DNA from: an uncultured Coriobacteriaceae bacterium | Lineage (GTDB): Bacteria; Actinomycetota; Coriobacteriia; Coriobacteriales; Atopobiaceae | Assembly (NCBI GenBank): GCA_902772435.1 | Contig: CACYAX010000001.1 | Span: 4,987 to 68,986, forward strand | Direction of reading: 5' to 3' | Length of the DNA stretch: 64,000 nt | Shown here: positions 12,126 to 32,025 of the stretch, piece after piece | How the letters are laid out: every line of letters starts with the position of its first letter | Numbering within the stretch: the first letter of the stretch is position 1 | Notes under the pieces: generated by a model | What the model was told of the DNA's origin: nothing | Databases searched by the model: none | The model's input: only the letters and a program-made list of their open reading frames with translations | Made by a program: the position numbers and the translations under genes

Positions 12126-12334
12126 AGCTTTTGCTCGCAAGAGCGCACACACATTGCACGTCCGCTGCCAAAGACAGCCGGTGCCGCAAGGCTTAAAGGG
12201 GATGCCCGCCTGCCGAGGTGGTCTAGAAGATTCGCACCTTTGAGACCCCGTTTGGCTGCGCCAGGCGGGGTCTTTGCGTAAAGGGCCCGCCCAGTGGCGG
12301 AAGTGCCCGAACGCACCACAAGGAGGTGAATCAC
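12126..12334 (+). promoter_or_regulatory. Probable L10(L12)4 autoregulatory leader, including the attenuator-like hairpin gaccccg..cggggtc plus tttg (about 12245-12277)
   Basis: Long structured 5' UTR in the position where L10 leaders occur in Gram-positives. No covariance model was run. Confidence 0.35.
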
Positions 12335-12770
12335 ATGCCAGCACAGTCAAAGTACGAGATGCTCGAGAAGGTTACCGCCTCTCTCGAGGCTTCGAAGGGT
12401 TTCTACGTCGTGGACTACCGCGGCCTCACCGTCAAGGAGGCCGAGGAGCTTCGTCGCCAGCTCCGCGCAAGCGGCGCCAACTTACGTGTTCTTCGGTGAT
12501 GATCCGGTCAGCCCGGCAAAGGCCCTGAAGGAGTTCGCGAAGACCACCAAGAAGACCCAGGTCCTCGGTGGTATCGCAGATGGCCAGGCCCTCACCGCTG
12601 ACGAGGCTATCGCTTACGCGGAGCTTCCGAGCTACGAGGAGCTCATGGGCCAGCTCGTGTACGTCATCGCAAGCCCGCTCCGTGGCCTCATGTCCGTCAT
12701 CAACGGCCCCGCCCGCGGTCTGGCGCTCGCCCTCAAGGCGATTTCCGAGAAGGAGCAGGAGGCTGCATAA
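12335..12770 (+). pseudogene. rplJ: 50S ribosomal protein L10, interrupted as written by an internal out-of-frame deletion near 12486-12490
   Basis: The N-terminal 52 codons (MPAQSKYEMLEKV...RQLRASGANLRV) run into TGA at 12497. The C-terminal 93 codons (FFGDDPVSPAKALKEFAK...EKEQEAA) are in another frame. The usual KNTL...GPTA segment is missing. Confidence 0.85.
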
Positions 12771-12844: not shown

Positions 12845-13213
12845 ATGACTATCGATGAGCTCGTTGCCGAGATTGAGAAGATGACCCTGCTCGAGGCCGC
12901 TGACCTCGTCCACGCCCTCGAGGACAAGTTCGGCGTCTCCGCCGCCGCCCCCGTGGCCGTCGCCGCCGCTCCTGCCGCCGCCGCTGAGGAGGTCGAGGAG
13001 AAGACCAACTTTGACGTCGAGCTGACCGCTTTCGGCAGCAACAAGATCGCCGTCATCAAGGTCGTCCGTGCCCTCACCTCCCTTGGCCTCAAGGAGGCCA
13101 AGGAGGCCGTCGAGAGCGCCCCGAAGGTGCTGCTCGAGGGTGCCAAGAAGGAGGACGCCGAGGCTGCCAAGGCCAAGCTCGAGGAGGCCGGCGCCACCGT
13201 CACCCTGAAGTAA
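12845..13213 (+). CDS. rplL: 50S ribosomal protein L7/L12
   Basis: 122 aa with an Ala-rich hinge and C-terminal [40 protein letters not shown]. Confidence 0.95.
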
Positions 13214-13239
13214 ATAACTTCTGGTACATGGTTTTGCCA

Positions 13240-13272
13240 GGGGCCGAGCGTGCGCGCTCGGCCCCTCTTTTG
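13240..13272 (+). terminator. Rho-independent terminator after rplL (ggggccgagcg..cgctcggcccc plus tcttttgtg)
   Basis: 11-bp GC stem and a T-tract. Confidence 0.75.
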
Positions 13273-13640
13273 TGTATGGGGAATCGAATCCCGCATAGCG
13301 CGCGTTCAAACAGGCTGGTCTTAGGTGCATGCGGACCAACGCAGGGGTGGGCATGACGATGCGCCAAGAGCACGCGCACCAGCGAGCACGCCGTACCCGA
13401 TGCGGATATGGTGCGAAGCGCGGGCCTCATGGAGGGGTGCCTTTCATTCTGCCTGCATGACCGTGCACTTCGGCTTTACGCTGGCTCAAGGTTTAATGTC
13501 GTACTCAAGCTGCACCTGAGAGTAATCGAATCCTATCTTGCGGGGGTCTTAAAGGTAGTCTGTGATAAGCTGAAAAGTGCTAAAACGAAACAGAATGCTC
13601 GCGAGATTTGTTTGATGAAGCGGGAACACGGAGAATACCC

Positions 13641-16600
13641 ATGATGGCGTCCAAAACGGAGCACAAACGGAGCAATCGCCTAAGGGCATCCGGCTCGGAA
13701 GGAATGCGGCCCATGAATGGAAGACGGAAGACACTGACCATTCTTGTGTCGGTCGCAATGCTGCTGTCCATGCTGCCCACTAACGCGTTGGCGGAGATGG
13801 TCGGCATTGACGGTGGGTCAGCTGAGGTTGTCGAGACTCCAACTAGCGTGATCGACGAGAGTGGGGTTGAGGCGCCAGGCGCGGACGAGGCGCCTGCGGC
13901 AGGCGATACCGATGTCGAGTCCGAAGTGGCCCAAGAAATCGCGGCCAGCGATGGCGAGTCTCTTGTGGCGGAAGCTGCAACCGAGGACGAAGCCGCAGCC
14001 GAAGGGACTGTCGCCGACGAGCCAAGAGACGACGCCACGTCAAACGACTATGCCGAAGCCGAGCCTGTCGCCGGGTCCGAGGCGTATCTGTCTGGGACGC
14101 TGTCTGTCGAGGGGCTCGACTATGCCGTCTCCGTAGACCCGACCGAAGACGCCAAGCTTCCCGCCAATGCCCAGCTTGTGGTCAGCGAAGTCAGTGGTGC
14201 CGCGTATGACGAATACGTCGCTCAGGCCGAATCCGCGCTCGGCAAGGGCGCCCTCTCCATCGGCCGCATCTTCGACATCGGCTTCGAGGTTGAAGGAGAG
14301 TCCGTCGAACCCGCCTCTGAGGTCTCCGTACACATACGCCTCGCCAACGCCGAGGAGGAGGCCGCTAAGGTCCTCCACATCACTGATGAGGGCGTTGAGG
14401 TCATCGTGCCCGATTCCGCTCCAGAGGGTTCCGAGAGCGTTGACTTCACCGTCGAGCAGCTGTCGCCGTTCCTGATGCAGAAGAGGAACGCGAAGGGGGG
14501 CGAGCAGGGCATCATCACCGATTTCAATACCGAAGTCATCTACGGCGGTTCTTGGACCGACGGCAAGTACGTCTGGAATGCCGCCTCGTCCGCCTCGGGC
14601 CACCACTTCAACTTCCGCATCAGCTTCGGCGTCGACAAACCTGCCGGCTCTGAGGCAGCCGACATCGTCTATCCGGCCGAGAGCATCAAGATCACCGTCC
14701 CTGCTCAGATCCTGCACGACCGCAATGGCGCGTTTGCTGACACCATCGACATGTCCGTGCCCCTCAAGGAAGACCTCGAGCAGGCCATCGCTGACGGTGA
14801 GGAACTCGATGACGACATGAGCTTCGCCTACTACGTGGAGCTTGATGACGAGGGCAATCCCACGGGCAACCTCGTGCTCTACAACTTCCGCGAGGTGGAG
14901 CCGGGCTTTGACGGCTACATCGAGCTCGGCTACGTCACGTCCGAGAAGACCTTTGAGTATGAGGACATGTGCGAGTCAGACCCGTTCTGGGCAACCATCG
15001 AGGTCGTGGACCCCACGAGCGAGACGGGCGAGAAGGAGGTCCATACCACCAAGCTCCTCGAAGAGGGCGAGGAGGAAGACCCTGACGTCGACTACATCGA
15101 CGACCAGGACTACACCGTGTGGATCAACACCCAGGCGAGCATGCTCTCCACCGAGAAGCGCATCCCTACCAAGTACGACAGCTGGCAGAGCAACTGGGGG
15201 ACAGCTCCCGATGATGCGGCCGACTACAACTACCTCATCTATGAGGTCCGTAGCCGCATAAACGACTGCTCGCAGAAGTACACCTTCACGCTTGACGACG
15301 AGTACACCAAGCTCATCTCAGGCAACAACAGCGGTGACGTCCAAGCTGACTCCAGCACCGTCAAGATCATGGGCTACATATTCAGTGGCAGCTCTACGGC
15401 GCAGCAGCAGAACTTCGTCACCGACCAGACCATCCGCGACATCCGCTACGACTACGTGATCGTGGGATTCCAGAACAGCTACTGGAACAGCTACACGCAC
15501 TGGGACGTGGTGAACAAGATCACTGCGACGGTCACGCCCGATGACGGCATCGACGAGCCTACCTCGGGCACGTCGACGCGCCGCTTCAACTGGAACAAGC
15601 CCATCTTTGATGGCGGCGGCGGAGGCTTTAACTCCCGCATCACGGCCGACGGTTACTATCGCAACCGTGCGGACCAGGACCTGTGGCCGCGTGAGTACCT
15701 GACGAGCCTCGGCATGGTTGCGGGCTACTACACGCGCTTCGACCTCGCCGACCTGCAAAGTGGCAGAGTCGAGTATCTTGACAACATCGATTACGCGCAC
15801 TGGGGCGAGGGTTATCCCATCTCCTGGACGCGCGACTCCTCCATTGGCGGAGAGCTTTGGGAGCAGTACTTCCAGAACCCTGTCAAATACGAGGTCTACC
15901 TCGACAACTTCTCTATCTTCAACGGCGACCAGAACGTGGGCACTGCCGAGAAGACCCAGCTCCAGCCGGGTGACTACCAGATCGATACGCTTGCATTCTC
16001 CGTCTCCTGCTATGACCGCGCGTATAACGAGAGCACTGCCGCCTTCGACAAGAAGACCGCTACGACCTACCTCGAAGACGAGGTTCTTACGTTCTACGGC
16101 AAGTTTGGCGAAAGCGACGAGTGGACGGCTTTCGCAACACGCGATGCCGCGACGGGCACGGTCACCGTTCTCGATTCTTCGCTTGCCACTTTCTCGGGCA
16201 ACAAGTTCACCTTTGCCGAAGGCGCTGCCTGCACGGGCTACAAGGTCGAGACGACCAACAAACACTATTACTGGCGTGTCAACCTCGTTCCCAACCTGCG
16301 CCTCATCGGCTCTGACAACGTGAAAGACTTCATCAACGGGACCGATGAGGACGGAAACCCCATCGAGTGCATCGGCATCTACGCCAAGGGCCGCGAGAAC
16401 ATCTACAGCCACCTGTCCGCGTTCGATGCCAAGGTCGCGGCCCTCATGAAAGCTGACAGCAGCCTCACCCAGGCCGATGCTGAGGCACAGGCTGAGGAGC
16501 TCGGCCTCTCCAAGGAGGGCTTCACCAACCTCGTGTGGAACGCGAATCCTGCCGATACCGACTACCTGCGCGTGGTCCAGCGTGAGGTGAAACTGAACAA

Positions 16601-19600
16601 GGACGTCACCGCGACGGCCAACAACGCCACCAAGCGCCAGTACACCCTTACCTGGCAGGTCGACTTCGAGGAAACCTCCACGGTAGGCGATGGCACCGAG
16701 CATGAGCCCGTCGAGCAGTCCAGTGGCGTGTTCTACGACCTGCTGCCCCAGGGCGCGACGCTCAACGAGGACACCGTCATGGTGGTGACCGAGGACGGCG
16801 CCCTGCGCTCCAATGCTTTCACCATCGAGCAGCACGACAATTACAAGGGCACGGGCCGCACGCTGCTCGTGGTCCGCGTGAAGGAGTCTGCCGACTTCTA
16901 CCAGCTTTTCTTCGAGACGGTCCACTCCTATGCCTCCATCAAGGACTACGGTTCCGAGGTCTATAACCCCATTGCCTATCAGACCGGCAACCTCGACATC
17001 TCCGATGGCGTTACGGACAGCGACCCCAACAAGGAGACCGTGCAGAGCACCGATCTCGTTCCCGACCCGCTCGACGATGCCGGGCTCATGACGGACATCG
17101 TCAAGGAGATCACGGGTGAGGATGACGACTCGGGTCGCACCTTCGTGTACAACGAGCGTCTCTATGACATCGTGACCATCACCGCCGCCGCGTCGGGCCT
17201 TTCCAAGAAGATCAAGGCCCCCAGCACGAGCGACTATGTCAATGAGGCCCTCGTCCAGAACGAGGGAAGCTACAGCTACCGTCTGCGCTACCAGAACAGT
17301 TACGCGGGCGAAGCGAAGAGCCTCGTGTTCTACGACAACCTTGAGTCCTACGAGGGCAAGCGCGCGAGCGATTGGCAGGGCACGCTCCAGGCAATCGACT
17401 TCTCCGCCCTCGACCTGTCGCTCGTGGCTCCCGAAGTCTACGTGAGCGAGAACGCAGTCGACACCTCCAACGCCGACAACCGCGACCTCACCAACGAAGA
17501 CGTCTGGACGCACGTCGACGACTACACGAACTACGACTACTCATCTGTCAGGGCAGTTGCCATCGACCTCAGCAAGAACCCCGAGGGCGAGGACTACATC
17601 ATTAACAAGGGCGCCGCCGTCTCTGTCTACCTGTACATGAAGGCGCCGGCAGGCGCGACCCGCTCGGATGGCAAGGCTGACTACCCTGAGGCTTACAACG
17701 AGGTGGCCGACAGCCATACCATCATCAAAGAGACCTCTGCGGACCAGGACGTCTACAACCAGCAGGGCCCGACCATTGCCAAGCTCGCCATCTCCAAGGA
17801 CATCAACCTCCTCAAGGTCGGCGAGGACGGCGTGGGCATCCGTAACATCTCGTTCCGCCTGGTCGGCACCTCCGACTACGGCACCGAGTACGACAAGATC
17901 GAGTACTCCGACAAGAACGGTTACGTGACCTTCAGGAAGATCGAGAAGGGCAGCTACACGTTCTCCGAGTATGAGTGCACCCCCGACTGGCTCGAGGATC
18001 ACACCGTGCACACCGTGTGGATTAGTTCTCAGGGCCACGTGTTCATCGACATGCCCGAGAGCCTGAAGACCGAGCTTGCCGCCGACGCCACGGTGGATGA
18101 GACCATCAGTTACTATGCCGAGCGCGCCGCGTATGACAAGACGAGCGTCGAGTTCGAGATCGTGAACAAGCCGCGCGTGCATGCCGACCTCACCTTCCTC
18201 AAGAGCCGTGCGCTCACCGAGGACGACAACTCCGTCAAGGGCATTCCCGAGACCACGTTCAAGCTGAGCGGAACCTCCGATTACGGCAACGAGATCACCA
18301 AGATCGTGGTTTCCAACGAGCTCGGCATCGTGTCGATCTATGACATCGAGAAGGGCACCTACACCCTCAAGGAGATTCAGGCCAATCCCGACTACGTGCT
18401 CGTGGAGACCGAGTACCGCGTGAAGATCGACGACACGGGCAACGCGACCCTCTATGCCCCGCGCGTTGACGAAGAGGGCAACCCCGTCGTTGACGTCGAG
18501 GGCAACACGGCCTACGACGAGGTCGTGGTCGACGATACCCTCTCGCAGTATCGCCTGCTCTTCAACCCCGAGCGCTACCACGACCTGATGCTGCGCAAGG
18601 TGGACGCCGACAATCCCAGCCGCTGGCTGCAGGGAGCCACCGTGCGCCTGACGGGCGCGAAGCTCGCTGACTACAACTACACCGACGATGAGGGCAACAC
18701 GGTCACCGCCACTGAGGACAACGGCAGCTACTACATCGAGACCGTGAGTGACGCCAACGGCAAGATCAGCTTCCCGCACCTCGAGGCGGGCAGCTACGTG
18801 CTTAAGGAGACCGAGGCGCCTTCGGGCGTTGACGGCGACGGTCACACCGGCACGGGCGGCACGCTCAACTACATCGCTGACAGCAACGAATACGTGGTCG
18901 TCGTCGCCGACGACGGCACGGTGACCATCGATGGCCTTGAGAAGAACAGCTTCGATGAGTACATGCTCAAGAATGCCCGCGCGCTTGACGGCGAGATCAT
19001 CGTCTACAAGCAGTGGGAAGATGACGACAATGCGGATGGCAGCCGCCCTGATGCCGCGACCATCAAGATGACCGCCGATCCCGAGAGCCTCGTCATCAAG
19101 GGTCTCACGGTCACCAAGATCTGGCAGGGCGATACCTCAGAGCTGCGTCCCGATGACCTGAACATCCAGATTTACAAGGCGCCAGGCCAGATTGACGGCT
19201 ACACCATGGTCGAGTACATCGAGGCCAACGGCGGGGCTTGGCTTGACACGGGCTTCAATCCCGATAGCAACACCACGGTTGACGCCACGATCATGATGAC
19301 GGGCAACAACAATCACCAAACGCTCTTTGGTGCGAGGAACGCGGTTTCGGGAACGCCGGCTTTCTCATTGTGTGAGGGCCACGATAAGAACACCAACCTG
19401 CTCTATTACTATGGCGCCGCGGGCCAGTGGTATGAGATGGGCAAAAAGTCCCTCACGCGAGACGTCAGCTATGACGTGCACCTAGGACCGGATGCCGTGA
19501 CGGTTTCCAACGACTTCTTCTCCTCGACCACACCGAGCGCGGAGTTCTCGGTTGACGTCTCGCTTTACATCTTTGCATACCACCATGACTCAGACGTGGT

Positions 19601-22600
19601 CTACGGCGACACGCAGGGCCGCATCTACTCCTTCCGCATCTACGACGGCAGCACGCTCGTGCGCGACTACATTCCCGTCTACGACGCGACCAACGGCGTC
19701 TACGGCCTGTACGATCTCGTGAACGGCAACTTCATCTCTTCGATCGGCACCGCGCAGTTCACGGGCCCCGAGGTGAGCACCGAGGCTGAGCTCTACGAAG
19801 AGAGCACGGGCAACGACAACGTGACCATCATCAAGGTGGGTAACGTCTGGACCTATACGTTCACTGACATCACTATCGACGGCAAGCAGAACTTCTTTGC
19901 CTGCGAGGCTGCGGCTCCTGAGGGCTATACCGGCTCAAACGTGGGCGCCAGCAACCTCGCGGCGGTCCAGTCCGGCAAGGCGACGATCACCAACGCCTAT
20001 GAGTCCGCGACCGACTATGAATACACGGGAGCCGTCCAGACCTTCACGGCCCCCGTCACGGGCGACTACAAGCTCGAGGCTTGGGGTGCCCAGGGCGGTA
20101 ACTCTGCGGGCAACAAAAGCGTGCAAAAGCCCGTGTATTACGGATTGGGCGGTAGAGGCGCCTACACTTCGGGCACCATCAGGCTCACTGCAGGCCAGAC
20201 CATCTATGTCTACGTTGGTGGACGCAACAATGGCCCCTATAGGTATGACGCCAACGGCAGGGTCGCAAGCGGCGATGACGCACCCGCGGCCTTCAATGGC
20301 GGAGGCGGCGGAAACCATGACCACAGCGGTCGTGAATCAGGCTCACCGGAGAGTGGTGGCTCTGGTGGCGGTGCGACCGACTTCCGCCTGACGGTGTCCA
20401 CTGCCGATGATGGCTGGAGCGGTTTTGACTCACTGAAGACACGCATCATGGTCGCCGCTGGTGGCGGCGGTTCCGCCGACCAGCAGACCGGCGGCTACGG
20501 TGGTGCCCTGACGGGCGGTAATGCACTCGGCAATGCCTATGGCGCCACGCAGAATACGGGCTTTGGTTTCGGCGTGGGCCAAACATCGACATATAAATGG
20601 TCCAACAAGGACGGCGGAGGTGCTGGCGGCGGATACTACGGCGGATTCGCGCAGACAAACGCTAGCCATGGCCGCGGAAACTACTCCAACGCGGGCGCCG
20701 GCGGCTCGTCCTTCGTGTCCGGCTATGAGGGCTGCGACGCCATCGCCGAGAGCTCTACGGCTGCCAGCATCGTTCATACGGGATCTTCTGAGCATTACTC
20801 CGGCATCGTGTTCAGCGACCCGGTCATGCTCGCGGGCAACCAGGCGATCACCGAGCCGGATGGAAGCAGCTCCACTGGTCACGAGGGCGATGGCCACGCG
20901 CGCGTCACGCTCGTGGTGGACACCAACTCATCAACCGACGGCTCTTCGAGCTCCGATGACGCGAGCTCCGACACGATGCTCCCCGTCGCGGAGTACATGA
21001 CCGAGACCGATGGCTGGGAGTACGTTGAGGGCAACCCCAACATGCAGAAGTACGTCTTCAAGGTCTTCAACGACGAGGGCACGTACTACCTCGAGGAGCT
21101 TACTGACGCTGAGCACCTGCCCGAGGGCTACACCTGCGACATGGACTACCAGGTGCTCGACGGAACCAAGCAGAAGTCGGTCATCTTCACCAACCGCAAG
21201 GCGGGCGCCTACGGTGACCTCGAGATCACCAAGACCGTCGAGGGCCTCGATGACTCGAACCAGAAGTTTGAGATCACCGTCACCCTCTCTGACGGCGACG
21301 GCACCAAGATTGACGAGGCCGGCAGCACCATCATCGACGGCATCGCCTTTACCAACGGCGCGGCGACCTTCTCGCTGGCCGACGGCGAGAAGGCGACCAT
21401 CCATAACATCCCGCTGAACGTGGCGTACACGGTCTCCGAGGCAGCGAACCCCAACTTCAACAACGGCGCAGCGCTAGCCGACCAGACTGGCACCATTCAG
21501 CCAAACACCACGACGACCGATGACGAGGGCAACACCGTGACGGAGCCCGGCAACAAGGTTGCGCTCACCAACGTCTATACGTATAAGGCAGAGACCGTGC
21601 CGTTGACCATCTCCAAGGTCGTGACGGGCTCCAAGCTCGGTAGCGAGGACGTGGAGTACCCGTTCTTCGTATCCTTCACCAACCTTGCCAAGAACTTCGA
21701 ATACGTGCTCCTGAGCACTGACGGTGCCACCGAGTATGCCCGCTTCACCTCCGATGACAGCGGCAACGCCACGGTGTCCTTCAAGCTCAAGGACGGCGAG
21801 AGCGCCGTGCTCGCGGACTCCTACGCGATTCCGGTCGATGCTACCTACCAGGTAACCGAGAACGAGGGAGACTACGTCGCCTCCTTCTCCATCAAGGACG
21901 CGGGCGCGGAGTCCCAGGGCAGCATCCTGCAGTCCGCGAAGGAGAACACCGCGTCCCAGACCTCGCTGACCACGGAAAACGAGGTCGCGGAGTCGGACGA
22001 GGACGTGACCATTACCTACACGAACAAGCTCAGCTACACGCATGACCTCACGCTCGCCAAGGTTGTTGACGCACAGGGCACCACGGTGCCGGCGGGCCAG
22101 ACCTTCGAGTTCACGGTCCGCTTCGAGGGGCTGGAATCCGAGCAGGCCATCGACACCACGATCGGCCGATGGGTCGCCGACGACGAGGGCGTGGTCGAGA
22201 AGACCTTCAACCTCAAGGACGCCGGCACGGTGACCTTCAAGAAGCTGCCGGTGGGCACCAAGTACACCATCACGGAGGCCAAGGCGGGCGGTTACATTGC
22301 CAGCTATGAGATCACGGCGGAAGACGAGGATGCCCTCGTGGCCGTCAAGGCCGAGGACGCAAACGAGGCTGCCGGCAAGGCGCTTGCCACCGCTCAGGAG
22401 ACCGTGAACAAGAACGAGGTCGCCACGGTGACCTTCACCAACACGCGTGCGATGGGCGAGCTTACCCTCGAGAAGCAGGTTGAGGGCAAGACGACCAGCA
22501 AGAAGTTTGAGTTTGAGCTCTACATCCCCGACCTGGTGCGCCAGAAGACGTCGTATGAGGCCTATCTGAACACGGACGGCACGCCCGTAAGCCAAGGCAC

Positions 22601-22973
22601 GGGCGAGATCGAGTTTGACGCAAACGGCAAGGCGACCGTGCAGCTGGCCGATAACGAGCGCTACGTTATTGCCGTGCCCGAAGGCGCGTCGTACAAGATC
22701 ACCGAGACCATGGACGCGCAGTACACCGCGAGCTACACCGTCGCGGGAGGCAAGAAGGTCTCCAGCCCGGTGGTCTCTGGCCGCACCATCAGCAGCGAAC
22801 CCGCTGAGAACGTGGTCATCTTCACCAACACGTTCGCTACCTACGAACTGCCCTCTTCGGGCGGTCCCGGATCGTATCCGTTCATCATCTGTGGCGTGGC
22901 CATTCTCGCCACGGCCCTTCTTCTGCTTGAGAAGAACAGGCGTGAGGAAGGGGGAAACAAGGCGAGGTCCTAG
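13641..22973 (+). CDS. Giant (about 3110 aa) sortase-anchored surface adhesin / probable pilus tip protein. The start is uncertain: 13608 TTG, 13641 ATG or 13704 ATG.
   Basis: Signal peptide (RRKTLTILVSVAMLLSMLPTNALA). Acidic N-terminal region. Three Cna-B/prealbumin-like repeats (about 17790-18830). Glycine-rich domain (about 20017-20920). Four C-terminal pilin-like Ig repeats (about 21200-22830). LPSSG plus TM plus a basic tail at the C-terminus. Confidence 0.8.
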   Translation: MMASKTEHKRSNRLRASGSEGMRPMNGRRKTLTILVSVAMLLSMLPTNALAEMVGIDGGSAEVVETPTSVIDESGVEAPGADEAPAAGDTDVESEVAQEIAASDGESLVAEAATEDEAAAEGTVADEPRDDATSNDYAEAEPVAGSEAYLSGTLSVEGLDYAVSVDPTEDAKLPANAQLVVSEVSGAAYDEYVAQAESALGKGALSIGRIFDIGFEVEGESVEPASEVSVHIRLANAEEEAAKVLHITDEGVEVIVPDSAPEGSESVDFTVEQLSPFLMQKRNAKGGEQGIITDFNTEVIYGGSWTDGKYVWNAASSASGHHFNFRISFGVDKPAGSEAADIVYPAESIKITVPAQILHDRNGAFADTIDMSVPLKEDLEQAIADGEELDDDMSFAYYVELDDEGNPTGNLVLYNFREVEPGFDGYIELGYVTSEKTFEYEDMCESDPFWATIEVVDPTSETGEKEVHTTKLLEEGEEEDPDVDYIDDQDYTVWINTQASMLSTEKRIPTKYDSWQSNWGTAPDDAADYNYLIYEVRSRINDCSQKYTFTLDDEYTKLISGNNSGDVQADSSTVKIMGYIFSGSSTAQQQNFVTDQTIRDIRYDYVIVGFQNSYWNSYTHWDVVNKITATVTPDDGIDEPTSGTSTRRFNWNKPIFDGGGGGFNSRITADGYYRNRADQDLWPREYLTSLGMVAGYYTRFDLADLQSGRVEYLDNIDYAHWGEGYPISWTRDSSIGGELWEQYFQNPVKYEVYLDNFSIFNGDQNVGTAEKTQLQPGDYQIDTLAFSVSCYDRAYNESTAAFDKKTATTYLEDEVLTFYGKFGESDEWTAFATRDAATGTVTVLDSSLATFSGNKFTFAEGAACTGYKVETTNKHYYWRVNLVPNLRLIGSDNVKDFINGTDEDGNPIECIGIYAKGRENIYSHLSAFDAKVAALMKADSSLTQADAEAQAEELGLSKEGFTNLVWNANPADTDYLRVVQREVKLNKDVTATANNATKRQYTLTWQVDFEETSTVGDGTEHEPVEQSSGVFYDLLPQGATLNEDTVMVVTEDGALRSNAFTIEQHDNYKGTGRTLLVVRVKESADFYQLFFETVHSYASIKDYGSEVYNPIAYQTGNLDISDGVTDSDPNKETVQSTDLVPDPLDDAGLMTDIVKEITGEDDDSGRTFVYNERLYDIVTITAAASGLSKKIKAPSTSDYVNEALVQNEGSYSYRLRYQNSYAGEAKSLVFYDNLESYEGKRASDWQGTLQAIDFSALDLSLVAPEVYVSENAVDTSNADNRDLTNEDVWTHVDDYTNYDYSSVRAVAIDLSKNPEGEDYIINKGAAVSVYLYMKAPAGATRSDGKADYPEAYNEVADSHTIIKETSADQDVYNQQGPTIAKLAISKDINLLKVGEDGVGIRNISFRLVGTSDYGTEYDKIEYSDKNGYVTFRKIEKGSYTFSEYECTPDWLEDHTVHTVWISSQGHVFIDMPESLKTELAADATVDETISYYAERAAYDKTSVEFEIVNKPRVHADLTFLKSRALTEDDNSVKGIPETTFKLSGTSDYGNEITKIVVSNELGIVSIYDIEKGTYTLKEIQANPDYVLVETEYRVKIDDTGNATLYAPRVDEEGNPVVDVEGNTAYDEVVVDDTLSQYRLLFNPERYHDLMLRKVDADNPSRWLQGATVRLTGAKLADYNYTDDEGNTVTATEDNGSYYIETVSDANGKISFPHLEAGSYVLKETEAPSGVDGDGHTGTGGTLNYIADSNEYVVVVADDGTVTIDGLEKNSFDEYMLKNARALDGEIIVYKQWEDDDNADGSRPDAATIKMTADPESLVIKGLTVTKIWQGDTSELRPDDLNIQIYKAPGQIDGYTMVEYIEANGGAWLDTGFNPDSNTTVDATIMMTGNNNHQTLFGARNAVSGTPAFSLCEGHDKNTNLLYYYGAAGQWYEMGKKSLTRDVSYDVHLGPDAVTVSNDFFSSTTPSAEFSVDVSLYIFAYHHDSDVVYGDTQGRIYSFRIYDGSTLVRDYIPVYDATNGVYGLYDLVNGNFISSIGTAQFTGPEVSTEAELYEESTGNDNVTIIKVGNVWTYTFTDITIDGKQNFFACEAAAPEGYTGSNVGASNLAAVQSGKATITNAYESATDYEYTGAVQTFTAPVTGDYKLEAWGAQGGNSAGNKSVQKPVYYGLGGRGAYTSGTIRLTAGQTIYVYVGGRNNGPYRYDANGRVASGDDAPAAFNGGGGGNHDHSGRESGSPESGGSGGGATDFRLTVSTADDGWSGFDSLKTRIMVAAGGGGSADQQTGGYGGALTGGNALGNAYGATQNTGFGFGVGQTSTYKWSNKDGGGAGGGYYGGFAQTNASHGRGNYSNAGAGGSSFVSGYEGCDAIAESSTAASIVHTGSSEHYSGIVFSDPVMLAGNQAITEPDGSSSTGHEGDGHARVTLVVDTNSSTDGSSSSDDASSDTMLPVAEYMTETDGWEYVEGNPNMQKYVFKVFNDEGTYYLEELTDAEHLPEGYTCDMDYQVLDGTKQKSVIFTNRKAGAYGDLEITKTVEGLDDSNQKFEITVTLSDGDGTKIDEAGSTIIDGIAFTNGAATFSLADGEKATIHNIPLNVAYTVSEAANPNFNNGAALADQTGTIQPNTTTTDDEGNTVTEPGNKVALTNVYTYKAETVPLTISKVVTGSKLGSEDVEYPFFVSFTNLAKNFEYVLLSTDGATEYARFTSDDSGNATVSFKLKDGESAVLADSYAIPVDATYQVTENEGDYVASFSIKDAGAESQGSILQSAKENTASQTSLTTENEVAESDEDVTITYTNKLSYTHDLTLAKVVDAQGTTVPAGQTFEFTVRFEGLESEQAIDTTIGRWVADDEGVVEKTFNLKDAGTVTFKKLPVGTKYTITEAKAGGYIASYEITAEDEDALVAVKAEDANEAAGKALATAQETVNKNEVATVTFTNTRAMGELTLEKQVEGKTTSKKFEFELYIPDLVRQKTSYEAYLNTDGTPVSQGTGEIEFDANGKATVQLADNERYVIAVPEGASYKITETMDAQYTASYTVAGGKKVSSPVVSGRTISSEPAENVVIFTNTFATYELPSSGGPGSYPFIICGVAILATALLLLEKNRREEGGNKARS

Positions 22974-23113
22974 CGGGAAGGCGGCAGTGCCGCCGGCTCG
23001 GCCTGCACCGAAGCAGGCGCGGAGCCCAAAGCCCGGGCCTCCCGGGAGAATCGTGAGTAGGCAAACAGGAATAGAACGTTGCGAACAAGGCAAGCAATGT
23101 GAAAGGAGCAGGC

Positions 23114-24787
23114 ATGAAGATGAAGGCGCGTATAGGAGCGATGCTGGCGGCGGCCGTCATGTCGTTCTCGCTTGCAGTGCCCGCGCTGGCGGCTGTGCCG
23201 AGTGCTGACACTGAGGCGACCATCACGGTCCAGAACGTCAAGAACGAGGGCGTCACGGTAAAGGCCTACCAGGTCGTTGAGGGCACCTACAACAGCTATG
23301 GCCTGACGGGCTACAAGGCCATCGCGGGCGTCTCGATTGCCGACATCGAGAACCCGACGGCGGCCGAGATCACCAAGATTGCCGCTGACATTGCGGCGGG
23401 CACTATCACCCCTTCACCCATTGATCTCTCGAGCACTGACGGCTCAACCTACACGGCCGATGTCCCCGCGGGCTCCTACGTCGTGTTGATCACTGGTGGC
23501 ACGGATACCATCTATAACCCGATCCTCATGGGCGTGTATTACACCGACGCCCAGGATGACACCAAGATCGCGGCTGGTACCGTGGACGCCGAGGGCAACT
23601 TCGTCTACAAGGCCGAGAATGGTGACGGCGATCTTGAGGACGTGACGGCCTACGTCAAGAGCGACCTCATCCCCGGCGACAAGACCGTCACGGACGAAGA
23701 CGCCGAAACCGATCACGGCAGCGACTACGCCATCGGCGACACCGTACCCTTCAAGATCGAGACCGCGTTCCCGTCGTATGCCGACAACTATGAGGACGCC
23801 GTCTTCAACGTCACCGATACATTCAGCGCTGGCCTGACCAATAACGAGGACGTGAAGATTACCATCACCGATGCTGATGATAACGAGGTCAATGCCACCG
23901 AAGACGACTACACCATTAACTACGGGACCGACCCCACCATCAAGATCGAGTTCGACTCTGACTTCGTCCTCGCTAACGGCGGCGCCAACGTCGTCATCAC
24001 CTACAGCGCTGAAGTCAACGATGACGCGGTCGTGAACCTCGACCCCAACACCAACAGCTTCGTCATCGAGTTCACGAACGGCCCCGACGACACGAGCGAT
24101 GGCATCGAGGGCAAGACCTACCAGTACACCTTCGCCATTGACGGCAAGATCATGGGCACCAACGAGGAGGTCGAGAAGGAGCTCGTGAAGGTTTCCCTCG
24201 ACGAGAACGGTGACCCTGTGTACGAGGAGACCGAGGGCGAGACCACGACCAACTACTATCCGCTGGCTGGCGCAACCTTCAAGCTCACCAACGACGATAC
24301 CGATGCGATCTACTACGCCACGACCGACAACAAGGGCCTCTTCGGCCCCGCCACGGTTGACGGAACCGACTACGCTGGTTTTGTGGGCCTCGACGCGGGC
24401 GAGTACACCCTCATCGAGACTGTTGCGCCTACGGGCTATACGGTTGACGGCCAGGAGCACGCCGTGAAGATCGAGGCCGAGTACTATGAGGCCGACGAGC
24501 TCGACGACGATGGTGCCATCGTCGCCCACAAGGGTCAGCTGAAGAGCTACACCATCACCATCGACAGCAAGGAGCAGACCTACACCGCCGCGTATGAGGG
24601 CGGCTCCGTTACCAGCTACACTGAGGAAGACGAAGAGGGGTTTGCCGTCATCAAGAACACCAAGCTTTCCGAGCTTCCCAGCACGGGCGGAATCGGTTCC
24701 TACGTGTTCACCATTGCCGGCGTGGTCGTCATGGCCGGCGCGGCGGGCATCTTCTTCATGAACCGTCGTAAGGACGAGCAGAAGTAA
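23114..24787 (+). CDS. LPXTG-anchored major (backbone) pilin, SpaA/FimA-like
   Basis: Signal peptide, E-box-like GEYTLIETVAPTGYT, candidate pilin-motif Lys (TAYVKSD), and a C-terminal LPSTG plus TM plus RRKDEQK. Confidence 0.75.
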   Translation: MKMKARIGAMLAAAVMSFSLAVPALAAVPSADTEATITVQNVKNEGVTVKAYQVVEGTYNSYGLTGYKAIAGVSIADIENPTAAEITKIAADIAAGTITPSPIDLSSTDGSTYTADVPAGSYVVLITGGTDTIYNPILMGVYYTDAQDDTKIAAGTVDAEGNFVYKAENGDGDLEDVTAYVKSDLIPGDKTVTDEDAETDHGSDYAIGDTVPFKIETAFPSYADNYEDAVFNVTDTFSAGLTNNEDVKITITDADDNEVNATEDDYTINYGTDPTIKIEFDSDFVLANGGANVVITYSAEVNDDAVVNLDPNTNSFVIEFTNGPDDTSDGIEGKTYQYTFAIDGKIMGTNEEVEKELVKVSLDENGDPVYEETEGETTTNYYPLAGATFKLTNDDTDAIYYATTDNKGLFGPATVDGTDYAGFVGLDAGEYTLIETVAPTGYTVDGQEHAVKIEAEYYEADELDDDGAIVAHKGQLKSYTITIDSKEQTYTAAYEGGSVTSYTEEDEEGFAVIKNTKLSELPSTGGIGSYVFTIAGVVVMAGAAGIFFMNRRKDEQK

Positions 24788-24874
24788 GTGCTGCTCGCGT
24801 GCGTGAGCACGCTGTGTGTGAGTTTGCGGGGCCGGCGCACGTTGCCGGCCCCCGCGAGAAGCAATGGGGAACGC

Positions 24875-25867
24875 ATGAATGGTCGCCGGAAGGCAAACAT
24901 CATCCTCGTCCTCGTGTTCTTTGTGGGACTGAGCGTTGCGCTGTATCCGACGATCAGCACGGCTTGGAACGAGTATCGCGCCCGCCAGCTGGTGACCAGC
25001 TACGACCAGACGGTCAGCAGGGCCACGGCGGAGGACGAAGACTACTTTGCCCAAGAGATCGGCAAGGCACAGCGCTACAACGCGACGCTTGCCAACATGC
25101 CGGTTCCCGATGCCTTCTCGGTGCGAGAGGGCGTGAAGGACGTCTCGTATGAGGCGCTGCTGAACGTCAACGGTGATGGGATGATCGGCTACGTCGAGAT
25201 ACCGTGTCTCGACGAGAAGCTGCCCATCTATCACTACACCACCGAGTCCGTGCTGCTCAAGGGCGCCGGACACCTGCTGGGGAGCGCGCTCCCTGTAGGC
25301 GGTGAGGGAACGCATTGCGTGGTCTCGGCCCACCGCGGGCTGCCCCACGCAAAGATGTTCAAAGAGCTGGACCTCATGGAGGTGGGCGACGAGTTCTACT
25401 TCCATGTGCTGGGCAAGGTCTTCGCCTACGAGGTCGACCAGATCCTCGTGGTGGAACCGAGCGAGGTCGAGTCGCTCGGCGTGACGGAGGGCAAGGACTA
25501 CGCGACCCTCATCACGTGCACGCCCTACGCAGTGAACACGCGCCGCTTGCTGGTGCGGGGCCATCGGGTGGAGTTCGACGAAGCGGCCTACGAAAAGGCC
25601 GTGGGAGAGACGGCTGCCAAGAGCAACGTACCCTACCTGCTCATGCAGCTACTCTGCGTAGCCTTGGGTCTCGTGATCGCGTTCGTAATCGTGAGGCTTC
25701 TGGACAGGCGCAGGCAGGCGAAGAGCGCGCCTGCGGTGGCTGGGCGTCACAGCAGGATGACAGGGCCTGATGGTGGGCCGCGGCCTCATGAGAAAGAGGG
25801 GCACGAGGAAACAGGGGAAGTGCGCGGACGCCACGTCCGCCGCGGCCCGGATGGGGGAGCGCAGTGA
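24875..25867 (+). CDS. Class C (pilus-assembly) sortase
   Basis: N-terminal TM, catalytic region with CVVSAHRG and TLITCTPYAVNTRRLLVRGHRV (TLxTC), and a C-terminal TM anchor. Confidence 0.85.
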   Translation: MNGRRKANIILVLVFFVGLSVALYPTISTAWNEYRARQLVTSYDQTVSRATAEDEDYFAQEIGKAQRYNATLANMPVPDAFSVREGVKDVSYEALLNVNGDGMIGYVEIPCLDEKLPIYHYTTESVLLKGAGHLLGSALPVGGEGTHCVVSAHRGLPHAKMFKELDLMEVGDEFYFHVLGKVFAYEVDQILVVEPSEVESLGVTEGKDYATLITCTPYAVNTRRLLVRGHRVEFDEAAYEKAVGETAAKSNVPYLLMQLLCVALGLVIAFVIVRLLDRRRQAKSAPAVAGRHSRMTGPDGGPRPHEKEGHEETGEVRGRHVRRGPDGGAQ

Positions 25868-26844
25868 CGGCGCCCGCCACATCGAAGCGCAGGCGCAGGG
25901 CCATCAACCTGATGCTCCTGCTGGTGTTCTTGCTCGGGGCGGGAATCTTGTTCTACCCCACGCTGAGCAACGCGTGGAACCGGTATCGCAGCCGGCAACT
26001 GATAACCGAATACGAGACAGTCGTGAGCGCGCTGCCGGATGACGAGAGTGCAGAGATTCTGGCGGCCGCCCGGGCCTATAACGAACAGCACGCCACCAAC
26101 GTGATCGTGGACGCGTTCAACGAGGAGACCGAGGACTACGTCCTCACGCATCCGTACGACACGCTGCTCAACCCCATGGGCAACATGATCATGGGCTACC
26201 TGCAGATACCCAAGATCGACGTGAGGCTGGCCATCTACCACGGTGTGGGTGCCAAGGCCTTGCGCGAGGGAGTGGGGCACGTGGAGGGAACGAGCCTCCC
26301 GGTTGGCGGCGAGCGCACGCACGCGGTGCTCTCCGCGCACCGCGGGCTTCCGAGTGCCAAGCTGTTCACCGACCTTGACCAGCTGAAGGTAGGGGACACG
26401 TTCTACCTGCACATACTGGACGAGGTTTTGGCCTACGAGGTCGATCAGATCCTCACGGTGCAGCCCGACGAAACGGAGGCGCTGGCACTTGAGGACGGCA
26501 AGGATCTCGTGACGCTCGTCACCTGTACGCCCTACGGGGTCAACTCGCACCGCCTGCTGGTGCGCGGGCACCGCGTGGCGTACAAGCCTGAGCACGAGGA
26601 GGCTGCGGCCGCTGAGGGCTCGGGAGAGACGGGGATCGAAGAGAAGCTGCTCATCATAGGGCTTTGCTCGGTCGCGGCGATCGTTCTCGTTATGTGGTTG
26701 GTGTTCGGCAGGCGTAAGCGCGAGGAATCGCGTGAAGAGCCTGGCAGGCATGCACGGGGCGGTGTGCACGCGCGCCGCGAAGGGCATGCGGAGCGGGAGG
26801 CGCGCGATGAGCGCGCGACGTACGGAAAGCACGCACGGCGCTGA
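25864..26844 (+). CDS. Second class C sortase; its start overlaps the upstream stop (GTGA)
   Basis: AVLSAHRG, VTLVTCTPYGVNSHRLLVRGHRV, C-terminal TM. Confidence 0.85.
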   Translation: MTAPATSKRRRRAINLMLLLVFLLGAGILFYPTLSNAWNRYRSRQLITEYETVVSALPDDESAEILAAARAYNEQHATNVIVDAFNEETEDYVLTHPYDTLLNPMGNMIMGYLQIPKIDVRLAIYHGVGAKALREGVGHVEGTSLPVGGERTHAVLSAHRGLPSAKLFTDLDQLKVGDTFYLHILDEVLAYEVDQILTVQPDETEALALEDGKDLVTLVTCTPYGVNSHRLLVRGHRVAYKPEHEEAAAAEGSGETGIEEKLLIIGLCSVAAIVLVMWLVFGRRKREESREEPGRHARGGVHARREGHAEREARDERATYGKHARR

Positions 26845-26974
26845 GCGTGAGCGTCGTAGGAAGAGATCACAGGGCGCGCATCACGTGTCAGTGGGTTTTG
26901 GGCACGGGGTGCGCTGGTTCGGTGACAAGGGTTTCAAGGTGCAGGGTTTCGGCATCGAGTGAAGAGGGTCAGTT

Positions 26975-28099
26975 ATGAAGAGAGAGAATCTGAAGGCGTT
27001 CAAGGGGCTGCTTGCGTTCGTGCTTGCCCTGCTGCTCGCGCTGCCGGCCGGCCTGGCCTTTGCGGACGAGCTAAATGACCTGGAGAAGAATCGCGTCGAG
27101 GACGTGGACGCGGGCAAGGCCTGTAGCCTGACCCTCGTCTTGAGCTACGAGAATGACGAGGGCGAGACCGTGGTGGTTCCCGATGCCTCGGTCAAGCTCT
27201 ACAAGGTGGCCGACCTCACGACTGCGGGCGGCAGCGCGACCTATGCCCTGACGTCTGCGTATGCGGGCACGGGCGTTGTGTTCGAGGGCATGACCGCCTC
27301 CGAGTCGGTGGACGCCGCTGATCTGCTCGCCGCAAGCGCTGGGGAGCCGCTGGCCTCTGCGGTCACAGACGATACGGGAACCGCGGCCTTTGACGGGCTC
27401 ACGCCGGGCATGTACCTGCTTGTGCAGGACAGCGAGTTCTCTGCGGGCGACGGAAGTTACCTCGAGTTCCTGCCGACCCTCGTTGCCGTGCCGCAGGCCA
27501 CGTGGAACGAAGAGGCGGCCATCAACCAGTGGAACTACGACGTGACCGCCGCGCCCAAGGTCGGACCCAAGACCACGCGCGTGAGCGTAGACCCGCCCGT
27601 GACGAAGACCGTGACGGGCGACAAGCCCTCCGCGGAAGGCACCTTCACGTTCACGCTGACGGCTGACCCCGCTTCGAGCACCCTGCCCGACGGCATGACC
27701 GAGATGCCGATGCCCGAGGATTCCGAGAACCAGACCAAGAGCATTACCGTCACGGGCGGCGGCCAGTACGAGTTTGGCCCCATCAGCTATAAACTGCCTG
27801 GTACCTACGTCTACACCGTGACCGAAGAGGCCGTGGGGGAGAAGGACTGGAACTATGACGGTAGCACCTATGTCGTGACCCATACCGTGACGGGCGACGG
27901 CGCCAACCTGGATGTGGAGACGGTCATCACCAGGGATGGCGCCGCGGTCTCCCAGATCGAGTTCGTGAACGAGTATCGTGTCGACAAGCCCATGCCGTTC
28001 ACGAGCGACATCATCCTGCCGTTCGCGCTGGTGGGTGGCATCGGTGCCACGGTGCTGGTGATCGGCCTGCTCGCGCGTCGCAAGAAGGGTGACGATTAA
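26975..28099 (+). CDS. Pilin subunit with a streptococcal-type pilin isopeptide-linkage domain and a non-canonical sorting signal (MPFTS plus TM plus RRKKGDD)
   Basis: Signal peptide. FTFTLTADP...LPDGMTEMPMPED...YEFGPISYKLPGTYVYTVTEE...WNYDGSTYVVTHTV pattern. C-terminal hydrophobic segment and basic tail. Confidence 0.7.
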   Translation: MKRENLKAFKGLLAFVLALLLALPAGLAFADELNDLEKNRVEDVDAGKACSLTLVLSYENDEGETVVVPDASVKLYKVADLTTAGGSATYALTSAYAGTGVVFEGMTASESVDAADLLAASAGEPLASAVTDDTGTAAFDGLTPGMYLLVQDSEFSAGDGSYLEFLPTLVAVPQATWNEEAAINQWNYDVTAAPKVGPKTTRVSVDPPVTKTVTGDKPSAEGTFTFTLTADPASSTLPDGMTEMPMPEDSENQTKSITVTGGGQYEFGPISYKLPGTYVYTVTEEAVGEKDWNYDGSTYVVTHTVTGDGANLDVETVITRDGAAVSQIEFVNEYRVDKPMPFTSDIILPFALVGGIGATVLVIGLLARRKKGDD

Positions 28100-28126
28100 C
28101 GGCTGTGTTCAAAACGCAGTAGCCGA

Positions 28127-28155
28127 GGGGCCCCGCGCGCGGGGCCCTTCTTTTG
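28127..28155 (+). terminator. Terminator after the pilus locus (ggggcccc gcgcgc ggggccc plus ttcttttg)
   Basis: GC hairpin and a T-tract. Confidence 0.6.
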
Positions 28156-28434
28156 CCTCTCGCACAACGTGGGGCAGATCGCTGAGACTGCATTTCGGAA
28201 GAGCGGGAGCGCAACGTCGCGGGATGGCGCTTTCGACCGCTGTACCGCGCGGCTCACGTCAAACCCAGGGCAAATTTCGTTCACAGGCATTTGCAATCAG
28301 GAGCAAATGCGCTATCATGGAATTTCTACCGATATCGTCACAAATACTACACATTCGGTATACATAGTTTTCGCAGGTAGACGCGCTGACGCCGTCCCAT
28401 ACAAGAAAACTCACAAGATGTCAAGACTTTTTCA

Positions 28435-28463
28435 TTGACCAAATTTCCTCCCTCGATTAAGTT
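28435..28463 (+). promoter_or_regulatory. Candidate rpoB promoter TTGACC, 17 nt, TAAGTT in an AT-richer stretch
   Basis: Hexamers read directly from the sequence. The ORF-track start at 28435 coincides with this site and was rejected. Confidence 0.4.
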
Positions 28464-28515
28464 ATTAGATTGCGACAACTGCCGCCTTTTAGCTTTCCGA
28501 AGGAGGAAGTGCCTG

Positions 28516-32025
<3,510 letters not shown>

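Follow-up and report, generated by a model that had tools for sequence, protein, structure and literature searches.

Why should the ribosomal protein gene rplL be separated from the RNA polymerase gene rpoB by a set of genes for a surface pilus? This arrangement is found in a 64,000-nt stretch of DNA (hereafter the window; contig CACYAX010000001.1, positions 4,987–68,986) from GCA_902772435.1, a metagenome assembly of an uncultured Coriobacteriaceae bacterium which consists of 312 contigs and is 92% complete. The gene order in the window is secE-nusG-rplKA-rplJL, the pilus locus (hereafter the island), and rpoBC. An earlier interpretation made from the letters of the window without database searches (the sequence-only reading) suggested that the locus was an old insertion or a lineage-specific rearrangement, which forces rpoBC onto its own promoter. 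The most economical reading of the evidence presented here is that a pilus operon of clostridial type was acquired horizontally and that its donor has not been sampled. The operon appears to have landed between two transcription units which were already separate.

The island extends from about position 13277 to a point within 28161–28340 (approximately 15 kb) and very probably represents an intact five-gene operon for a sortase-assembled pilus with three components. All of its genes are located on the + strand, co-directional with the ribosomal genes as the sequence-only reading had stated, and every element listed there was recovered within a few bases of its assigned position (open reading frame (ORF) map, Pfam and NCBIfam). 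The first gene (ATG 13641 to stop 22973), with a GGAGA ribosome-binding site 8 nt upstream of the ATG, encodes a giant adhesin of 3110 amino acids (aa). This protein has a signal peptide and, according to the Pfam scan, three SpaA (SpaA/CnaB-type) domains, an ALK_LTK_GRD (glycine-rich) domain, and four DUF7601 and two DUF5979 domains of the stalk. The ALK_LTK_GRD domain comprises residues 2151–2435 of the scanned 3121-aa ORF, which starts at TTG; the residue numbers are about 11 lower in the 3110-aa protein. The C-terminus of the adhesin consists of the sorting signal LPSSG, a transmembrane (TM) segment and the basic tail RREEG. The second gene (23114–24787) encodes the backbone, or major, pilin of 557 aa. 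It begins with the signal peptide MKMKARIGAMLAAAVMSFSLAVPALA, contains T6_Ig_like, GramPos_pilinBB, SpaA and Gram_pos_anchor domains as well as the isopeptide D2 domain TIGR04226 (Pfam, NCBIfam), and ends with LPSTGGIGSY...NRRKDEQK, which includes the LPSTG sorting signal. The pilin motif YxK (YVK) contains K182 of the 557-aa protein, and this lysine is invariant across 15 homologues. The protein also contains the E-box YTLIETVAPTGY, recorded as GEYTLIETVAPTGY in the pilus-feature check. Solved backbone pilins match the product of this gene, the identity to any solved pilin being low.

The backbone pilin gene is followed by two genes encoding class C sortases, which score 257.8 and 277.9 bits, respectively, against NF033745 (class_C_sortase, cut-off 160 bits). 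Sortase 1 (24788–25867; 359 aa) displays the motifs TLITCTP, SAHRG and LLVRGHR. Sortase 2 (25912–26844; 310 aa as called, or 326 aa from the alternative start GTG 25864) displays the motif TLVTCTP. In both enzymes the Cys of TLxTC, the His and the Arg are present and TM segments are found at the N- and C-terminus; the two genes share 70% nucleotide identity across 300 nt. The last gene (26975–28099) encodes a third pilin of 374 aa, which belongs to the FctA/Spy0128 type (PF12892, 75.9 bits; TIGR03786) and terminates with MPFTSD, a TM segment and RRKKGDD. The pilus operon is complete and probably functional.

The layout of the island was compared with assemblies obtained from independent samples. 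Three independent assemblies from the European Nucleotide Archive (ENA) span rplL, the five island genes and rpoB without a break and with equal spacing, and a fourth, which extends from the adhesin gene through rpoB, agrees with this layout. The four assemblies are 99.93–99.95% identical to the window. The only gap within the island is a 44-bp indel in one of them (L015), which lacks positions 13367–13410, a non-coding stretch that precedes the adhesin gene. The identical RplL protein was read on 22 contigs, and at each place shown that is long enough the adhesin gene starts at the same offset. The exact adhesin, pilin and sortase proteins were found on many contigs, and the 3110-aa product was called in several assemblies. 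Since at least four independent assemblies have the same layout at 99.9% identity, the island is not chimeric. No island-free strain was seen among the same-species contigs examined.

Two kinds of assembly defect were encountered in this comparison. About 89 nt at position 12481, within rplJ, are missing from the window and present in every independent same-species assembly; the broken rplJ is therefore an assembly defect and not biology. Three contigs (L123, L125 and L130, the last being G207:C220) leave the adhesin gene abruptly within its first 1.4 kb, at positions 14400, 14718 and 15072, respectively, and continue into unrelated DNA of lower GC content. L123 and L125 were considered as carriers of an alternative cargo, and G207:C220, a 99% identical adhesin fragment in a metagenome-assembled genome of another genus, as a recent transfer. 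Because the non-matching parts of L123, L125 and G207:C220 have a guanine-plus-cytosine (GC) content of 0.46–0.56 and are absent from the window genome, these contigs were read as chimeras or bin contamination. Chimeras at the 5′ region of the adhesin gene are perhaps favoured by strain microdiversity.

To place the island in its phylogenetic context, rplL and the 5′ part of rpoB were located in 60 relatives. The genus is represented by 19 species, 15 of which are assessable at the slot between the two genes. Ten of the 15 (G002, G003, G006, G008, G011 and G013–G017) have a gap of only 264–735 bp, and the remaining five, the window genome (G000), G009, G005, G010 and G007, carry cargo in this slot. 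Wherever both genes share a contig in other genera of the family, they are 283–832 bp apart. Elsewhere in the order, about 11 genomes have the two genes adjacent, six have 2–3.3 kb between them, and in several the genes are unlinked. In a tree of rpoB, the window genome falls into a well-supported clade with G008, G001, G004, G006 and G011, whose assessable members all have adjacent genes. The adjacent G003 forms a group with G009 and G010, and the adjacent G017, G015, G002 and G016 form one with G007. The tree requires at least three gains and rejects a single clade of cargo bearers. The pilus locus itself is sporadic: of the 19 species in the genus, and of 201 genomes sampled from the family, this species alone has it. 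The gene order is thus confined to one species and is a lineage-specific insertion, not an ancestral arrangement. This agrees with the insertion proposed in the sequence-only reading, which had named a gene order universal in the class as the observation that would make the arrangement ancestral; a universal order was clearly not seen.

The signals flanking the island bear on the question of whether the insertion altered the transcription of the polymerase genes. The left flank, rplL (12845–13213, + strand; ribosomal protein L7/L12; TIGR00855, 145.6 bits), is followed on the same strand by an intrinsic terminator (13239–13276) with a 12-bp GC-rich stem and a U-tract. Its hairpin (13239–13266) has a folding energy of −27 kcal/mol with z = −4.3, and the sequence CUUUUGUG follows. 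The second intrinsic terminator (28125–28160, + strand; 11-bp stem and U-tract) is located downstream of the third pilin gene, and its hairpin (28125–28150; −25.6 kcal/mol, z = −2.8) is followed by UUUUGCC. The left terminator is probably the ancestral terminator of rplL, and the right one belongs to the pilus operon. With these two strong hairpins and the five genes between them, the description of a self-contained sortase-dependent pilus locus bracketed by terminators holds. The region between the left terminator and the adhesin gene (13277–13640, + strand) is specific to the island, shows no homology to the DNA of relatives, and is presumed to contain the pilus promoter and the 5′ untranslated region. 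An Rfam scan upstream of the adhesin gene found no element and no riboswitch.

On the right side, the segment 28338–28515 (+ strand) is an ancestral spacer with an rpoB promoter-like block, a leader and a GGAGGAA ribosome-binding site. It leads into rpoB (GTG 28516 to 32025, + strand; NF001616, 1607 bits), whose best solved relatives align colinearly over the full length; going by their PDB codes, we take the best-matching chains to be mycobacterial and Streptomyces beta subunits. The promoter-like block consists of the −35 hexamer TTGACC (28435–28440), a 17-nt spacer and the −10 hexamer TAAGTT (28458–28463), and corresponds exactly to the candidate promoter at 28435–28463 which had been picked out in the sequence-only reading. 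The consensus promoter scanner did not list this block, yet it is conserved in nine species. When the 150 nt preceding rpoB were aligned for these nine species, some of them cargo-bearing and others cargo-free, GTCAAG, TTGAC(C/G), the 17-nt spacer and TAnnTT proved invariant. The elements TTGCG(A)CAA(C/G)TGCCGC, AGGAGGAA..GCC.GGTG, GGAGGAA and the GTG start are invariant in the same alignment.

The island-free relatives G003, G006 and G011 have a GC-rich terminator approximately 25–35 nt after rplL. In these relatives the order is rplL, terminator, poorly conserved spacer, conserved block and rpoB. An L10 leader was detected upstream of rplJ at 12150–12285 (RF00557, 44 bits, exactly the gathering score). 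As the terminator and the promoter block are present in island-free relatives and rplJL has an L10 leader of its own, the two units are older than the cargo; these signals indicate that rplJL and rpoBC were separate transcription units before the insertion in this lineage. The cargo landed between units that were already separate, so rpoBC was not pushed onto a new promoter. In this respect the sequence-only reading, which made the insertion responsible for the separate promoter of rpoBC, has to be corrected.

Neither the composition of the island nor its boundaries resemble those of a mobile element. The regions upstream of the adhesin gene and of rpoB, which had looked AT-richer by eye, do have a low GC content (0.46 at 13480–13640 and 0.44 at 28280–28515, against 0.63 for the window). 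The island genes are host-like, as had been expected from their appearance: the profile check gave a GC content at third codon positions (GC3) of 0.82–0.85 compared with a genome median of 0.80, and their codon-usage distance is at or under the genome median. All ORFs of at least 80 aa in 13214–28515 are the five pilus genes or shadow frames. No integrase, recombinase or transposase was found in this interval with Pfam and NCBIfam, and no relaxase or other non-pilus gene. Flanking direct or inverted repeats were not found at the island boundaries, and the right border contains no second copy of the 3′ end of rplL. The absence of an integrase, a transposase and flanking direct repeats had already been noted from the sequence. 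The two borders resemble each other most in the descending arm of the terminators, where 18 of 21 positions are identical (score 27 versus a shuffled maximum of 25). Homology to the DNA of sister species breaks off at the stop codon of rplL or roughly 15 nt past it and resumes at 28347–28419, and the mechanism of the insertion left no trace. Three of the four marks of a mobile island that were tested are absent, and only the sporadic distribution is present.

The slot that measures 15.3 kb in the window genome is filled by other genes in four sister species. The cargo of G009 (29.3 kb; L001:1408-20000 and L002:1-11090) comprises a raffinose-type ATP-binding cassette (ABC) transporter, a GH36 alpha-galactosidase, a galactokinase, a Ser/Thr kinase and a giant protein of Ig repeats, which is anchored in the membrane by its C-terminus. 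It also includes an EssC-like FtsK/FHA ATPase and its FHA partners, which together may constitute a type VII-like secretion module. The cargo of G005 (4.2 kb; L003:1102-4806) encodes a 1234-aa S8 subtilase with Kelch repeats and an LPKTG end. In G010, where rplL and rpoB are located on two contigs, at least 7.4 kb before rpoB (L006:1-7258) contain a distinct FCT-like pilus locus. Its genes encode a Listeria-Bacteroides-repeat protein, an S26 SipA-like peptidase, a DUF7601 pilin, a sortase and an FctA pilin. In G007, at least 6.7 kb before rpoB (L023:3-6521) encode two large proteins with LPQTG and LPQTS ends and no Pfam match. In tblastx comparisons the cargos are unrelated to each other, except for the FctA domain of the window genome and G010 (34–43% identity). 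No integrase matches were obtained in the four sister-species cargos scanned.

All five cargos encode surface proteins. Four of them contain sortase substrates, and the fifth contains the TM-anchored Ig-repeat giant. In the whole window genome approximately seven ORFs have a sortase-type tail, and three of these are inside the island. The five unrelated cargos have the same boundaries, namely the rplL terminator and the rpoB promoter block. These observations, which rest on five events only, suggest a variable slot at the level of the genus that always holds surface-protein genes, which is a new observation. A repeat structure was noted in the spacer of the island-free G006 (L004:2076-2525), where a perfect 98-bp tandem duplication with 34-nt units and inverted partial copies is present, either as a real feature or as an assembly artefact. 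These 34-nt/98-bp repeats were considered as a recombination site and dismissed, as they are unique to G006.

The origin of the pilus genes was approached through their closest relatives. No backbone pilin of more than 38% identity was found in the 18 sister species or in the 201 sampled genomes of the family, and the family contains no full-length relative of the N-terminal 1200 aa of the adhesin. In a collection of 5.8 billion proteins, the relatives of the pilin form three tiers: its own cluster, one variant with 83% identity, and sequences with at most 41% identity, which are named Acetatifactor, Faecalicatena and Eubacteriales. The best 80 pilin relatives from genomes of named species, found with an alignment as the query, all belong to Bacillota, except for one contig that is probably mis-binned and two labelled "bacterium". 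No relatives were found when the named genomes were scanned with the single pilin as the query. In a tree of 77 sequences the pilin of the window and the 83% variant are placed together on a long, isolated branch within the radiation of these relatives, and the G015 and G002 pilins are located elsewhere. The N-terminal 1200 aa of the adhesin are 36–44% identical to clostridial giant pilus adhesins. The closest adhesins reach 44% and 38% over 97% of this region and have the same architecture of SpaA, ALK_LTK_GRD and DUF7601/DUF5979 domains. Both are encoded on contigs with adjoining pilin and sortase genes, one with a GC content of 55.5% (and with Spo0A) and the other of 52%. An origin within the genome was ruled out, since the sortases of its second pilus locus (contig C170) are only about 34–44% identical.

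A second allele of the backbone pilin was recognized on a 3.3-kb contig from another sample (L119; Logan SRR27608113), which was compared with positions 21761–25036 of the window. The 3′ end of the adhesin gene on this contig is mostly 97.5–100% identical, with 94.5% identity in the first 400 nt compared, and the start of the sortase 1 gene is 100% identical. The body of the backbone pilin gene (23161–24760) is only 81–91% identical at the nucleotide level and 83% at the amino acid level. This pattern indicates a mosaic pilin allele, which would reflect recombination or diversifying selection on the major pilin and constitutes a new observation. Similar variation of the backbone is known for the streptococcal T antigens and for pneumococcal RrgB.

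By analogy with the established mechanism of pilus formation in Gram-positive bacteria, the following assembly route can be proposed. The three pilins would be exported by Sec. The two membrane-bound class C sortases would cut the LPSTG signal of the 557-aa backbone pilin and join its Thr to K182 of the next subunit. The 3110-aa adhesin would be incorporated first via LPSSG and thereby be placed at the tip, and the FctA-type third pilin with its MPFTSD signal would be added last and pass the fibre to the cell wall. The CnaB, SpaA and DUF7601 domains are expected to form isopeptide-stabilised stalks. Anchoring to the wall would possibly involve a class B sortase, the only other sortase type of the genome; this was the only non-class-C sortase detected (contig C3:35371-36624; TIGR03064, 163 bits). 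The tail of the third pilin (28040–28099), MPFTSDIILPFALVGGIGATVLVIG, resembles VPHTSDIKLPFMLFAGAGAVVLVIG, the tail of a 2523-aa ORF on the minus strand of contig C9, which contains VPHTSD. This resemblance suggests PxTSD as a second class of sorting signal, and the class B sortase may serve tails of this type.

With respect to its route of gain, the operon would represent species-specific accessory cargo located between the rplJL unit and the rpoBC unit. Its insertion would have been nearly neutral for the essential genes, because the two units were already transcribed separately, and the near-neutrality of the site would explain the presence of different cargo at this position in sister species. 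The operon would have been gained horizontally from an unsampled donor with a pilus type that is otherwise clostridial. Its host-like composition could reflect either long residence or a similarly GC-rich donor.

Four other explanations of the locus were weighed against this proposal. The one that touches its very existence is that contig C1 wrongly joins a pilus locus from another place in the genome, or from a different organism, between rplL and rpoB. Faulty joins do occur close by, at 12481 in rplJ and in the EF-Tu gene, and three other contigs are chimeric inside the 5′ region of the adhesin gene. Such an artefact has nevertheless a practically negligible chance, considering that three unbroken assemblies from different samples at 99.9% identity and a fourth from the island through rpoB reproduce the join, that further contigs carry the adhesin gene right after rplL, and that the GC3 of the island matches the host. 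The locus could also be genuine and old, if the ancestor of the genus, or a still earlier one, already carried the pilus operon at this junction and every other sampled lineage lost or replaced it. Host-like GC3 and codon usage are compatible with this, as is the pilus locus of G010, whose final gene, immediately before rpoB, likewise encodes an FctA-type pilin. The loci of G010 and G000, however, share that one domain only, at 30–43% identity. The short spacer is present in ten species of the genus and in almost all other genera, the window genome is nested in a well-supported clade of adjacent members, and its pilin does not group with other pilins of the genus, all of which makes the ancestral origin very improbable. 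It is unlikely as well, though less so, that the island is a decayed integrative and conjugative element (ICE), integrative and mobilizable element (IME) or genomic island, which integrated site-specifically at the 3′ end of rplL and has since lost its integrase, conjugation genes and attachment repeats, so that the pilus cargo alone is left. The left boundary within about 15–60 nt of the rplL stop codon and the 18 of 21 identical positions in the descending terminator arms would fit such an element. No integrase, relaxase, transposase or non-pilus gene is present in the 15 kb, however, no copy of the rplL 3′ end lies at the right border, the score of the terminator arm hardly differs from that of shuffled sequences (27 versus 25), and the four sister cargos were equally without integrase matches. 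The lack of a recombinase, of attachment-site (att) repeats and of a deviant composition shows that the island is not an ICE of the streptococcal type that targets rplL.

The least unlikely of the four alternatives is the exchange of surface-protein cassettes between species in the rplL–rpoB spacer through homologous recombination in the conserved flanks, which are rplL on the left and the rpoB promoter and rpoB on the right. Five different cargos in 15 assessable species all bear surface proteins, and the window genome has only about seven ORFs with a sortase signal. The cargo boundaries coincide, right after the rplL terminator and approximately 100–170 nt before rpoB, the flanks are 85–93% identical between species, integrases and repeats are lacking, and the mosaic pilin allele would show recombination inside the operon. 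On the other hand, no cargo is common to two species, and thus no exchange was observed. Surface proteins are common accessory genes anyway and five events are few, and the other genera of the family have equal flanks and no cargo. We therefore consider the cassette exchange possible but rather doubtful. It is with the same reserve that we put forward its wider form, in which the slot would be refilled throughout the genus with cassettes for pili, LPXTG proteases or giant adhesins and with no help from mobile elements, diversifying selection would act on the major pilin, and the junction would be a locus of surface variation comparable to the capsule (cps) and FCT loci.

The horizontal gain of a complete clostridial-type pilus operon remains the preferred reading, with a number of points that weigh against it. 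The rpoB tree rests on a single 1.2-kb fragment, which adjoins the slot itself, and does not include G005. The scan of the named genomes for pilin relatives was seeded by peptide patterns and could miss actinobacterial relatives. The best relatives outside the species are only about 40–44% identical, so neither the donor nor the direction of the transfer is established. With regard to the pilus itself, the order of the genes and the domains of their products are the sole basis for placing the adhesin at the tip and the third pilin, probably, at the base. The sorting signal MPFTSD of the third pilin is non-canonical and only a putative sortase motif. Housekeeping sortases of class A or class E were not detected in the 92%-complete genome, and a consensus promoter scan of 13277–13640 found no promoter.

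As a single case the locus matters little, as sortase-dependent pili are well understood and insertions into the operon cluster are documented. It provides a worked example that an interrupted rplL–rpoB junction need not disturb the expression of the polymerase genes, because in this lineage both the terminator and the promoter of rpoB are older than the island. The five surface-protein fillings in one genus offer a natural system for the study of gene gain without mobile-element machinery. The clostridial-type pilus, the 3110-aa tip protein and the two pilin alleles make the locus a candidate determinant of attachment in the rumen, where fibre, host or partner microbes are candidate targets.

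The locus belongs to two known kinds, the pilus operon and the operon-cluster insertion. With respect to the latter, unrelated genes are located between cluster units that are adjacent in relatives. Insertions in the secE-rpoBC-str-S10 cluster have been catalogued for Gammaproteobacteria and Bacilli, including nrdHEF between rplL and rsmC in Lactobacillaceae; one insertion in the catalogue lies immediately behind rplL, the mechanism is usually untraceable, and opened junctions tend to diversify (Brandis 2021, PMC8046335). The window resembles these cases in that few to many unrelated genes separate neighbouring units of the cluster. It differs from them in its actinobacterial host, in the already separate rplJL and rpoBC units, and in the five fillings within one genus. 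Integrative elements of the Tn5252 family occupy the 3′ end of streptococcal rplL; they carry a tyrosine integrase and a conjugation module, and the 3′ end of the gene lies within their direct repeats of 12–54 bp (Ambroset et al. 2016, PMC4701971). As in the window, the foreign DNA starts right after rplL, but the integrase, the conjugation genes and the repeats of these elements are absent here. A split between rplL and rpoB is familiar from other Actinobacteria: Mycobacterium tuberculosis is an actinobacterium in which, as in the window, unrelated genes separate the two. Its rpoB is presumably Rv0667, and the tag numbers would imply 14 genes between rplL and rpoB. The rplL gene is Rv0652 (PMC4125215). 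Unlike the window, M. tuberculosis has no pilus cargo at this site, and the arrangement is, we assume, genus-wide and not limited to one species.

With respect to the former kind, the locus displays at the sequence level the features of a sortase-dependent heteromeric pilus operon, the sorting signal of the third pilin being putative. The FCT (fibronectin-binding, collagen-binding, T-antigen) pili of Streptococcus pyogenes (cpa-sipA-tee/fctA-srtC-fctB; T6) share with it the gene order of tip adhesin, backbone pilin, one or more sortases and a small basal pilin of the FctA/FctB type, as well as the T6_Ig_like N-domain of the backbone and the Spy0128/FctA type of the third pilin. Another shared feature is allelic diversity of the backbone inside conserved flanks, which on the streptococcal side we take to apply to the T antigen. 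The window differs from the FCT loci in that its locus contains no SipA/S26 chaperone (the cargo of G010 has one), and in having two class C sortases in place of a class B-type polymerase. Its tip protein is 3110 aa long and contains ALK_LTK_GRD and no recognised thioester or vWA domain, and its host is an actinobacterium. The rlrA islet of Streptococcus pneumoniae (pilus islet 1, PI-1; rrgA, rrgB, rrgC and srtC1-3) is likewise a self-contained accessory islet of about 12–15 kb, with tip, backbone and base pilins and several class C sortases. PI-1 is restricted to some lineages, and divergent clades are known for its backbone pilin. The islet has the regulator rlrA and flanking insertion sequences, whereas the window locus has no regulator, insertion sequence or repeat, and the insertion sites differ. 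The SpaA-type pili of Corynebacterium diphtheriae and the fimbriae of Actinomyces resemble the window locus in class C polymerisation, the pilin-motif lysine, the E-box and the LPXTG signal. The basal pilin SpaB of C. diphtheriae carries the deviant signal LAFTG, which is comparable to the MPFTSD of the window. In the SpaA paradigm a class E housekeeping sortase anchors the fibre, whereas a class B sortase is the only candidate found for this role in the window genome. The pilins of the window are nearer to clostridial than to actinobacterial pilins.

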